Shown one piece after another: positions 5,256 to 5,664 of a stretch of DNA of 5,754 bases (position 1 is the stretch's first letter; each line of letters begins with the position of its first letter). The DNA comes from a virus (lineage: Monodnaviria > Loebvirae > Hofneiviricota > Faserviricetes > Tubulavirales > Inoviridae). The position numbers were made by a program, and so were the translations under genes. The notes below the pieces were generated by a model. It did not search any database, was not told the origin of the DNA, and worked only from the letters and a program-made list of their open reading frames with translations. Where the stretch lies: positions 1-5,754 of IMG/VR virus record IMGVR_UViG_2698536559_000001; one strand, 5' to 3'.

Positions 5256-5525
5256 TGCCGCGCCAGCGGCATGGAAGGCGGCATGATGAAGTTTCATGTG
5301 ACGCAGATGTCAGCCCGCCGAAGCCAGTGAGAGATGACAGAGCAGCAGGAGACAGCGCAACGCGCCGCCTGCCAGACCGCCTTTAAACGGGCAGTCAGCG
5401 AGACGAACGACGCAAGGCGTGAGTCGTCCATGCATTGATGTGGCATGTTGATGGAATTGATGATTTACAGCGTTCTGGTGAGGATTCGATGTGGCTTTCA
5501 GTCTGTTTTTACCGCATCTCATTGC

Positions 5526-5558
5526 AGTGCGTATAAGGTATATGCCGTTATGTTGAAT
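5526..5558 (+). other. Degenerate dif-like XerC/XerD site with a 5-nt expanded central region (candidate phage attP-derived site)
   Basis: AGTGCGTATAA (10 of 11 versus the dif XerC arm), then GGTATA (5 of 6 versus central TGTATA), then inserted TGCCG, then TTATGTTGAAT (10 of 11 versus the XerD arm). It is in the same orientation as the dif site 107 bp downstream and shares its flanking C and the A at position 1. Confidence 0.4.
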
Positions 5559-5664
5559 CGGGTGCGGCGAAAATGGCGATCGCCGCGCCCGATTTACACA
5601 TAACGCTCTTGTACGCACTGCTTTTAACGGGGCATCTTTTTGTCTTATCGATAACTGCTATAAC

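Follow-up and report, generated by a model that had tools for sequence, protein, structure and literature searches.

Genomic context of the region

The DNA analysed here (hereafter, the window) is a stretch of 5,754 nucleotides (nt), positions 1 to 5,754 of the IMG/VR virus record IMGVR_UViG_2698536559_000001, from a member of the Inoviridae. On its plus strand, filamentous-phage genes for structure and assembly are followed by a block with no obvious genes (5256-5664), which is the subject of this study, and then by dif (5665-5692). Proteins identical to the secretin of the window are encoded in many Escherichia coli assemblies at the chromosomal dif locus, where hipBA lies to one side and the fimbrial ydeQ-T cluster to the other. 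This secretin is 25% identical to pIV of fd/M13, and no close relative of the window phage was found in the phage collection, in which the top secretin match had 41% amino-acid identity. We interpret the window as the prophage form of a dif-integrated E. coli inovirus and the 5256-5664 block as its large intergenic cis-acting region, with a probability of about 0.72. The block consists of a conserved non-coding segment (Y, 5256-5485), the first part of which is referred to as block 1, an attP-like module (G) and the leader of a second attP-like module (T), most of which lies beyond the window (Table 1).

A first, sequence-only reading of the window had described the block as a GC-rich non-coding segment with stem-loops. 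The GC content reached 0.605 at 5201-5400 and 0.56 at 5301-5500, versus 0.33-0.45 over most of the phage, but the shift is less clear-cut than was described: values of 0.48-0.55 are found already in the secretin gene, and the block drops back to 0.43-0.49 over its last 160 nt. Both of the inverted repeats named in that reading are present. The first, ATGCCGC/GCGGCAT (5255-5261 and 5266-5272, read directly), lies after the secretin stop and encloses a GCCA loop; the second, GCGGCGA (5564-5570)/TCGCCGC (5580-5586), surrounds the palindrome GGCGATCGCC (5575-5584). They are only parts of larger conserved structures, block 1 of Y and the apical stem of hairpin G, respectively, and the secretin stop codon itself (TGA, 5253-5255) overlaps the first hairpin of Y. 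Folded as single-stranded DNA (ssDNA), as the reading had suggested, the whole block was more stable than any of 100 shuffled sequences (z = -4.83).

Table 1. Features of the window and their positions
Feature	Position	Strand	Description
pIII-like gene	1017-2624	+	Filamentous-phage gene
DUF2523 gene	2642-2929	+	Filamentous-phage gene
Zot/pI gene	2941-3999	+	Assembly gene
Secretin gene (pIV/GspD-like)	3996-5255	+	From the list of open reading frames; Pfam Secretin/Secretin_N on the identical protein in L003-L010
Y block 1, folded element	5253-5325	+	Hairpin 5255-5261/5266-5272, linker GGAAG, closed branched stem, then GAAGCC
Block 1 closing stem	5277-5281 / 5315-5319	+	GGCGG/CCGCC; encloses two small hairpins
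Block 1 small hairpins	5282-5286/5294-5298; 5300-5302/5309-5311	+	Inside the closing stem
Rest of Y	5326-5485	+	Conserved non-coding blocks, including CCTGCCAGACC (5368-5378), a hairpin (5402-5429) and TGATG repeats (5436-5470)
Leader of attP module G	5486-5523	+	T-rich motif (…GGCTTTCAGTCTGTTTTTACCGCATCTCATTGC) recurring 5' of XerC arms
Hairpin G	5524-5621	+	Intact CTX-type attP(+)-like element; 98-nt forked hairpin
G top site	5526-5558	+	AGTGCGTATAA / GGTATATGCCG / TTATGTTGAAT (XerC arm/core/XerD arm)
G apical stem	5556-5594	+	Holds the repeat at 5564-5586
G bottom site	5593-5619	-	AGTGCGTACAA / GAGCG / TTATGTGTAAA
Spacer, leader of attP module T	5622-5664	+	5629-5678 98% identical to the DNA directly 5' of complete T hairpins (L002, L026)
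attR, regenerated dif	5665-5692	+	AGTGCGCATAA TGTATA TTATGTTAAAT
attR XerC arm	5665-5675	+	AGTGCGCATAA; phage-derived, top arm of hairpin T
attR core and XerD arm	5676-5681; 5682-5692	+	TGTATA and TTATGTTAAAT; host dif
Host chromosome right of dif	5693-5754	+	Towards fimbrial ydeQ-T; same flank, then fimbrial genes, in L003-L010 and L026

Hairpin G and the prophage junctions

A scan for dif-like sites identified three such sites within 170 nt: one on the plus strand (5526-5558), one on the minus strand (5593-5619) and dif itself, the first two being inverted with respect to each other. The arms of these two sites, the top and bottom sites of G, had no more than three mismatches each to the arms of E. 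coli dif, and the XerC-arm motif GTGCGYAYAA occurred three times in 150 nt, versus 0.04 occurrences expected in the whole window. The segment from 5520 to 5625 folds at -38 kcal/mol (z = -9.07), with none of 200 shuffled sequences as stable. The predicted structure consists of a XerC-arm stem of 13-15 bp, a bulge of 5-6 nt on the 5' side, a XerD-arm stem with a one-base bulge, and the apical stem. Paired XerC and XerD arms around a partly unpaired core, the fold of an attP(+), were obtained in both the minimum free-energy and the centroid structures. This architecture was retained in 12 hairpins with unrelated apical-stem sequences, and the gene-sense strand was more stable than its complement in 10 of the 12, a difference explained by the G·T nature of the mismatches on that strand. 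Further variants were detected in an Enterobacter genome and in viral contigs; the scan of genome contigs for the hairpin pattern gave matches in only three species representatives, none of them Yersinia. The sequence of G itself displayed no substitution at any of its 98 positions across 10 loci with flanks differing by 1-6%, including that of a phage with unrelated assembly genes. Its core (GGTATATGCCG) is mismatched to the dif core (TGTATA) at position 1 and then matches it over GTATA.

Hairpin T, observed in related prophages, has the same pairing as G, an apical stem of wholly different sequence and the core TGTGACACGCG, which shares only its TGT with TGTATA, such that the homology to the dif core is confined to the XerC side. 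We compared the prophage junctions of eight loci encoding an identical secretin and displaying 94-98% nucleotide identity to the window, five of which include the left prophage end; the EC12 prophage (L026) provided a sixth left end. At all these left ends (L003, L005-L008 and L026), a host XerC arm (GGTGCGCATAA or GATGCGCATAA) is joined to TGTGACACGCG and the rest of hairpin T. At the right ends (the window and the same loci), Y, a complete G and the spacer precede AGTGCGCATAA, joined to TGTATA and TTATGTTAAAT. The XerC arm GATGCGCATAA replaces the canonical GGTGCGCATAA at the left junction in some hosts (L005, position 3702; L026, position 3801). For T, both prophage ends therefore have the composition of a XerC-only top-strand junction, and a single top-strand exchange by XerC, between dif and hairpin T, is the best reading of the junctions. 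The phage XerC arm ends up at attR, and its first base (5665) is accordingly an A, where E. coli dif has a G. Entry of the window prophage through G in a single event was ruled out, as every left end carries the T core.

These features suggest the following scheme. In the packaged (+) single strand, each attP module would fold into a forked hairpin of about 98 nt, in which the top dif-like site would pair with the inverted bottom site, such that arms for XerC and XerD binding flank a bulged core. The phage would have entered the chromosome via the downstream hairpin, T, by a XerC top-strand exchange at the arm/core boundary, the product then being fixed by replication. Integration through T would have moved the core and loop of T to the left end of the prophage, beyond the window, leaving here only the T leader and XerC arm, joined to the core and XerD arm of the host dif; G, 45 nt from dif, is intact, probably because the upstream hairpin was not used in integration. 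We infer that ssDNA, rather than double-stranded DNA (dsDNA), is the integration substrate, because the bottom site and the apical pairing are conserved and an 11-nt top core is unfit for a duplex Xer site. The exchange itself would probably be catalysed by XerC alone.

Two attP-like modules in one genome

The EC12 tandem prophage has a repeat of 8390 nt, and its internal junction, which corresponds to the circular phage sequence, contains the leader, G, 90 nt and a complete T, in that order, whereas at its right end the leader, G and 90 nt are followed by AGTGCGCATAA joined to TGTATA. An IMG/VR contig from a window-type phage (L027) runs from the secretin gene through Y, G, the spacer, a complete T and the replication genes, and back to the first 266 nt of the window. 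The same G-then-T order was found in the satellites of L002, which encode Rep, SSB and a regulator and have no structural genes, and the block is repeated within the tandem prophage L001. A similar T-rich leader, about 35 nt long, lies in front of each XerC arm, consistent with two tandem modules, each consisting of a leader and a hairpin. The phage genome carries, on this evidence, two predicted attP hairpins, G and T. No description of tandem attP hairpins was found in the searchable literature, the coverage of which was incomplete, and the arrangement appears to be undescribed, although such sites are themselves known from CTXphi, YpfPhi and CUS-1.

Positions 5486-5629 of the window are 99.3% identical to EC12, a phage with unrelated secretin, Zot and post-secretin DNA. 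We consider 5485/5486 to be a mosaic breakpoint, because the identity to EC12 is confined to the 5486-5629 side and the neighbouring sequences are unrelated. In the prophage form, G would stay with the upstream assembly module and T (minus its XerC arm) would go with the downstream regulatory and replication module. This split agrees with the presence of different Rep families (Phage_GPA, G2P_X_C and Rep_trans) in prophages sharing the same right end, and would fit the production of hybrid phages from arrays, as for CTXphi.

The spacer between G and the next XerC arm has a short form of 45 nt (window, 5629/5630) and a long form of about 90 nt (L003, 11634-11684; L026, 12110-12155), differing by one AT-rich indel of about 45 nt. 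Identical 3.7-kb satellites were found in tandem at dif, beside a complete phage, in E. coli JNE112863 (L024, 1-12600) and in L002 (2884-9824). These arrays contain up to four or more copies, encoding a regulator, Rep, SSB and two hypothetical proteins but no coat or assembly proteins, and are reminiscent of RS1 and TLC beside CTXphi in Vibrio cholerae. A circular sequence of 7439 bp deposited as an E. coli "plasmid" (L033; NZ_CP195780.1) is a complete filamentous-phage genome, with genes for the capsid, DUF2523, Zot, secretin, Rep and G5P; it also has one attP hairpin and a homologue of Y, and is presumably an episomal replicative form.

Two coding sequences of these prophages also merit description. 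In the pIII-like gene (2100-2270), a run of 12-nt repeats (GGCACCGGAACA and variants) encodes a Gly/Thr linker, and the number of repeats varies among prophages otherwise 96-98% identical, giving several offset BLAST matches at 2110-2260. The dif prophage of E. coli JNE25-005 (L025, 21506-21871) encodes, on the regulatory strand, a "TolA C-terminal domain-containing protein". Domain III of TolA is the co-receptor bound by the pIII of Ff phages, and this protein could be a decoy for superinfection exclusion.

Comparison with known Xer-exploiting systems

The 3' part of the block probably works like the attP(+) of CTXphi from V. cholerae, a site reportedly described by Val et al. in 2005: every feature of that site that can be checked in a sequence was found for T, and the same holds for G apart from a junction proving use and the pattern of its core homology to dif, which is different. 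Both CTXphi and the window phage have an inverted pair of dif-like sites, which in the (+) ssDNA gives a forked hairpin whose arms are paired and whose core is unpaired. Homology to dif on the XerC side of the core only is shared by T (TGT), the prophage junctions of both phages fit a single XerC strand exchange regenerating a functional dif at attR, and tandem arrays and satellites accumulate at dif in both cases. The two phages differ in host, that of the window phage being E. coli, and have no sequence homology beyond the Xer arms. The sites are separated by about 90 nt in the CTXphi hairpin, whereas the hairpin of the window is shorter, with about 35 nt between sites. Finally, the window phage has two tandem hairpins, one of which is intact in the prophage, and CTXphi has one. 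The CTXphi attP(+) has been reviewed elsewhere (PMC4246890).

YpfPhi of Yersinia pestis and CUS-1 of E. coli O18:K1:H7 have been classed as CTX-type, with an inverted pair of XerC/XerD sites and a predicted hairpin (PMC4246890, PMC4266046). As in the window phage, dif is rebuilt at the 3' end of these prophages, tandem repeats occur, and an unexplained segment lies between the secretion genes and attR. The window phage is nevertheless neither CUS-1 nor YpfPhi but a different lineage, the comparison with these two phages having been made via published descriptions and the tandem prophage of strain NC101, which appears CUS-1-like in its gene layout, the only character on which this assignment is based. 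The NC101 prophage is about 69% identical to the window over a short Zot segment only; it has no Y homologue, unrelated post-secretin DNA and a single hairpin with a different core (TGTCAACGCG).

Phages of the VGJ type have a single duplex dif-like site with a 6-7-bp core and recombine as dsDNA; the window phage is not of this type, because its sites are inverted pairs with top-strand cores of 10-11 nt. The attP of TLC-type elements contains a XerC arm and a dif-like core without a XerD arm, and is used in a XerD-first exchange aided by XafT. Considered as a duplex, the G top site has a XerC arm, a core with five of six positions matching dif (GGTATA versus TGTATA) and no correctly spaced XerD arm, and the derived junctions described below retain the G arm and core and take the XerD arm of dif, the outcome expected of a XerD-side or complete XerCD exchange. 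The event observed is, however, a deletion beside dif rather than an integration, and the G site is embedded in a hairpin of CTX architecture. The likeness of G to TLC-type sites may be only a resemblance.

Probable recombination between G and dif

A derived junction, AGTGCGTATAA GGTATA TTATGTTAAAT, was found in L007 (11532-11559), and a similar junction with a GATATA core was found in L002 (9797-9824) and in three RefSeq genomes (among them NZ_CM176589.1 and NZ_CP027437.1); no GGTATA-type converted dif was detected in RefSeq complete genomes. In the strains with derived junctions, the sole dif-like site at the locus has GGTATA or GATATA and a G-type XerC arm, not TGTATA, and recombination with the phage G site appears to have overwritten the core of the chromosomal dif. 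Such recombination would have deleted a unit of about 140 nt, leaving dif with the core of G. As the derived junctions keep the G core, they indicate a XerD-side exchange, or complete XerCD recombination followed by segregation, rather than the simple XerC top-strand product. All four Xer half-sites and the bulge geometry of G are intact. These sequences argue for G as a real Xer substrate, the top site of which recombined with the adjacent dif in a few strains. G may be either a second attP with another specificity or a conserved passenger.

A further junction was found on a 103-kb IncFIB plasmid, pUTAK-18-1 (L023, 5345-6507; NZ_CP157133.1), which carries a remnant of a filamentous phage, comprising the end of the secretin gene and Y and ending in AGTGCGCATAA CGTACA TTATGTTAAAT. 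The phage XerC arm is here joined to a Xer site with a non-dif core, indicating that these phages also insert into plasmid Xer sites.

A conserved folded element following the secretin gene

Y was found in 13 distinct copies from prophages and satellites, with 83-99% identity, and in the circular episome L033, with 77% identity; it is retained in satellites devoid of structural genes. Folded as ssDNA, block 1 (5253-5327) had a z-score of -3.05, and none of 200 shuffled sequences was as stable. The stem of its first hairpin occurs as ATGCCGC/GCGGCAT, ATGTCC/GGACAT and ATGCC/GGCAT, and the closing stem GGCGG/CCGCC is replaced by GGCCG/CGGCC in L002. In the block 1 alignment, 98.4% of the cells were paired and three pairs were changed on both sides. 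The covariation score was not equalled in any shuffle, and the number of pairs changed on both sides was equalled in one of 500 shuffles, in a test for which the structure was derived from the same sequences as were tested. A long-range pairing of 5276-5282 with 5364-5370, obtained with RNAalifold, was rejected in favour of the local stem, because the compensatory change in L002 fits the local stem only. One of the sequences, pJNE25-005_3 (L015), was first taken as a clean replicative form, but is frameshifted and bears an insertion sequence; it was used for sequence variants only.

The fold of the rest of Y (5326-5485) was not significant when this segment was considered alone (z = -1.28), and its conserved blocks are presumably cis-acting. 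One of the most conserved stretches of Y (5436-5470) contains three close TGATG motifs (TTGATGTGG, TTGATGGAA and TTGATGATT), a cluster that may be a protein-binding site.

The 71 nt at the start of Y (5255-5325) are 79-84% identical to an element present in at least 5000 IncFII-type plasmids from Escherichia, Klebsiella, Salmonella and Shigella (E = 2e-18 for the match to plasmid L011). This element always lies at +781 to +853 from the repA1 stop (L011, 2498-2570; also L012 and L019-L022), beyond the DnaA box of oriR (+176) and two Ter-like sites (about +440 and +580) placed by reading of the sequence. It is annotated in some records as part of a 63-amino-acid hypothetical protein. The plasmid strand matching block 1 is the leading-strand template, assuming that replication moves away from repA. 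We propose block 1 as a priming signal because this strand corresponds to the phage strand copied first; on conversion of the incoming single strand to the replicative form, minus-strand priming would take place in Y. Like the G4-type and phiX174-type priming signals and the minus origin of Ff, block 1 packs several hairpins into a short ssDNA element on the first-copied strand; unlike them, its stems are accompanied by no recognised promoter-like hexamers. In R1 and NR1, a primase-dependent start of the leading strand is reported to lie downstream of oriR; the IncFII element may be, but is not necessarily, the "G site" mapped in these plasmids.

Alternative interpretations

Several observations weigh against the interpretation of the block as an integration and replication region with two working attP hairpins and a priming site. 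For G, no G-type integration junction was found among the left ends seen (L003, L005-L008 and L026), and the core begins with G(G/A) rather than TGT, such that G may work poorly at E. coli dif. G is also rare, being present in 13 of 5426 complete E. coli genomes, versus 100 with T-type hairpins, and related phages with a single hairpin exist, including the episome L033, indicating that G is dispensable. The prophage junctions are equally compatible with the integration of ssDNA or dsDNA. For Y, covariation is modest, because most of the stems are invariant, and the EC12 phage carries the G module but no Y. The complementary-strand priming role proposed for block 1 is drawn from its position and its homology. 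A local alignment of block 1 to the oric of phage G4 (G4 3880-4010) gave a score at the level of shuffled controls, and direct reading identified no CTG primase start on the plus strand between 5253 and 5368; a G4-type primase-dependent signal near the hairpins was discarded on these two grounds.

The sequence-only reading had raised the possibility of foreign or remnant DNA trapped between two Xer sites. This description is literally correct for 5537-5675, which lies between two XerC cleavage positions, but this segment is unlikely to be mere debris: it belongs to the repeat unit of tandem prophages, and its conservation at 10 loci is 100%. A rival explanation holds that the G unit (5537-5675) is a functionless relic, either what is left of an earlier phage of the G type or a duplicate attP, caught at dif and copied passively into hybrid phages as rolling-circle replication crosses between prophages. 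The unit is, indeed, bounded exactly by arm/core boundaries, with variable flanking XerC arms: the upstream arm is T-type in L024 and L025, and the downstream arm is of the host type (GGTGCGCATAA) in L024. L025 has two G units in tandem (462 and 146 nt), strains without the unit are viable, and the rarity of G and the single-hairpin phages mentioned above would also be accounted for. The absence of substitutions in G at loci with divergent flanks, the integrity of the four half-sites and of the bulge, and the inclusion of G within the repeat unit of a tandem prophage and in a viral contig argue in the opposite direction, and we regard the relic as a minority possibility that deserves to be kept in mind.

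We attach a similarly guarded weight to a more elaborate version of the preferred interpretation, in which G and T, with their different cores, are both functional attP hairpins and form a dual key, together with a Xer cassette of 140-200 nt and a priming signal in Y block 1 shared with IncFII plasmids. T would serve standard dif (TGTATA), and G would serve cores starting with G (the GGTATA and GATATA variants of dif) or the dimer-resolution sites of plasmids. The unit between the XerC cleavage points would be a minimal Xer-mobilised cassette, moving among unrelated inoviruses and rewriting the dif core of the host. The variable flanking arms and the two tandem units of L025 give this unit a cassette-like appearance.

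An equivalence to the Ff intergenic region, also raised by the sequence-only reading, was borne out in part. The block is non-coding, cis-acting phage DNA within the unit genome (tandem prophages L001 and L026; viral contig L027), its 5' part is also carried by the 7.4-kb circular episome L033, and its position after the gene IV homologue is analogous. No homology was detected to the packaging hairpin or origins of Ff, and the strongest structure in the block is a Xer site, which Ff phages lack. The corresponding functional proposal, that the hairpin at 5255-5272 or block 1 is the packaging signal, the rest of the block contains the origins and the Xer sites are incidental, seems unlikely to us, although packaging remains the main alternative role for block 1. 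The location of this element right after the gene IV homologue matches that of the Ff packaging signal, the packaging signal of integrative inoviruses of Xanthomonas is a GC-rich hairpin of 20-26 nt (bioRxiv 10.1101/2023.12.30.573655), and Y is kept by satellites, which still must be packaged. However, the 71 nt of block 1 are a constant component of IncFII replicons, and these are not packaged; the block also has no similarity to any inovirus in the phage collection: a distant blastn search against 50,697 phage records yielded only dif-like matches in Vibrio phages. In addition, what dominates the folding of the block is a Xer site, to which the prophage junctions correspond, and a plus-strand origin would be expected near the replication gene, at the other prophage end.

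It is highly improbable that the block encodes small proteins, like the two ORFs (open reading frames) adjoining attR in YpfPhi or h3-h5 of the UPphi phages. ORFs of 44-102 amino acids are present on both strands, a "hypothetical protein" is annotated over homologous DNA in some RefSeq records, and YPO2280a/2281 of YpfPhi occupy an equivalent place (PMC4266046). However, consistent with the earlier statement that the block contains no convincing ORF, none of the five candidate ORFs had a PHROG or Pfam match. Close relatives differ by frame-breaking indels of a single nucleotide, and the annotated ORFs vary in strand and position between records. The longest ORF, of 102 amino acids on the minus strand, crosses hairpin G and the 5485/5486 recombination breakpoint, and the CUS-1-like prophage of NC101 has unrelated DNA at this place.

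Least credible of all is the notion that the block belongs to the host chromosome beside dif, or that it serves the secretin operon as an RNA element or terminator, as the hairpin directly 3' of the stop codon might suggest: more than 97% of complete E. coli genomes lack the block (Y is present in 143 of the 5426), such that it is not host DNA beside dif, a scan for terminators found none, with no T-run 3' of the hairpin at the secretin stop, and an Rfam search of the block gave no match at E values of up to 1. The sequence-only reading had named homology to the host chromosome beside dif and absence from the phage replicative form as contrary findings; neither was made, the region being present in the replicating unit.

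Implications

The region is structured cis-acting phage DNA of a known general kind, with an unexplained link to a hairpin element of IncFII plasmids. The 71-nt element is a testable candidate for the complementary-strand start in these inoviruses, a step uncharacterised outside Ff. For annotation, the "hypothetical proteins" called beside attR in prophages of this kind probably correspond to folded DNA, not to genes.

What is known of Xer-exploiting elements comes almost wholly from V. cholerae, and the dif site of E. coli hosts comparable phage and satellite arrays. These arrays would display a variation on the CTXphi mechanism, with two attP hairpins per genome, one of which remains intact in the prophage beside dif. 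If G is active, it would account for the reassortment of modules between phages and for the rewriting of the dif core in some strains, and it could widen the range of targets to include the Xer sites of plasmids.

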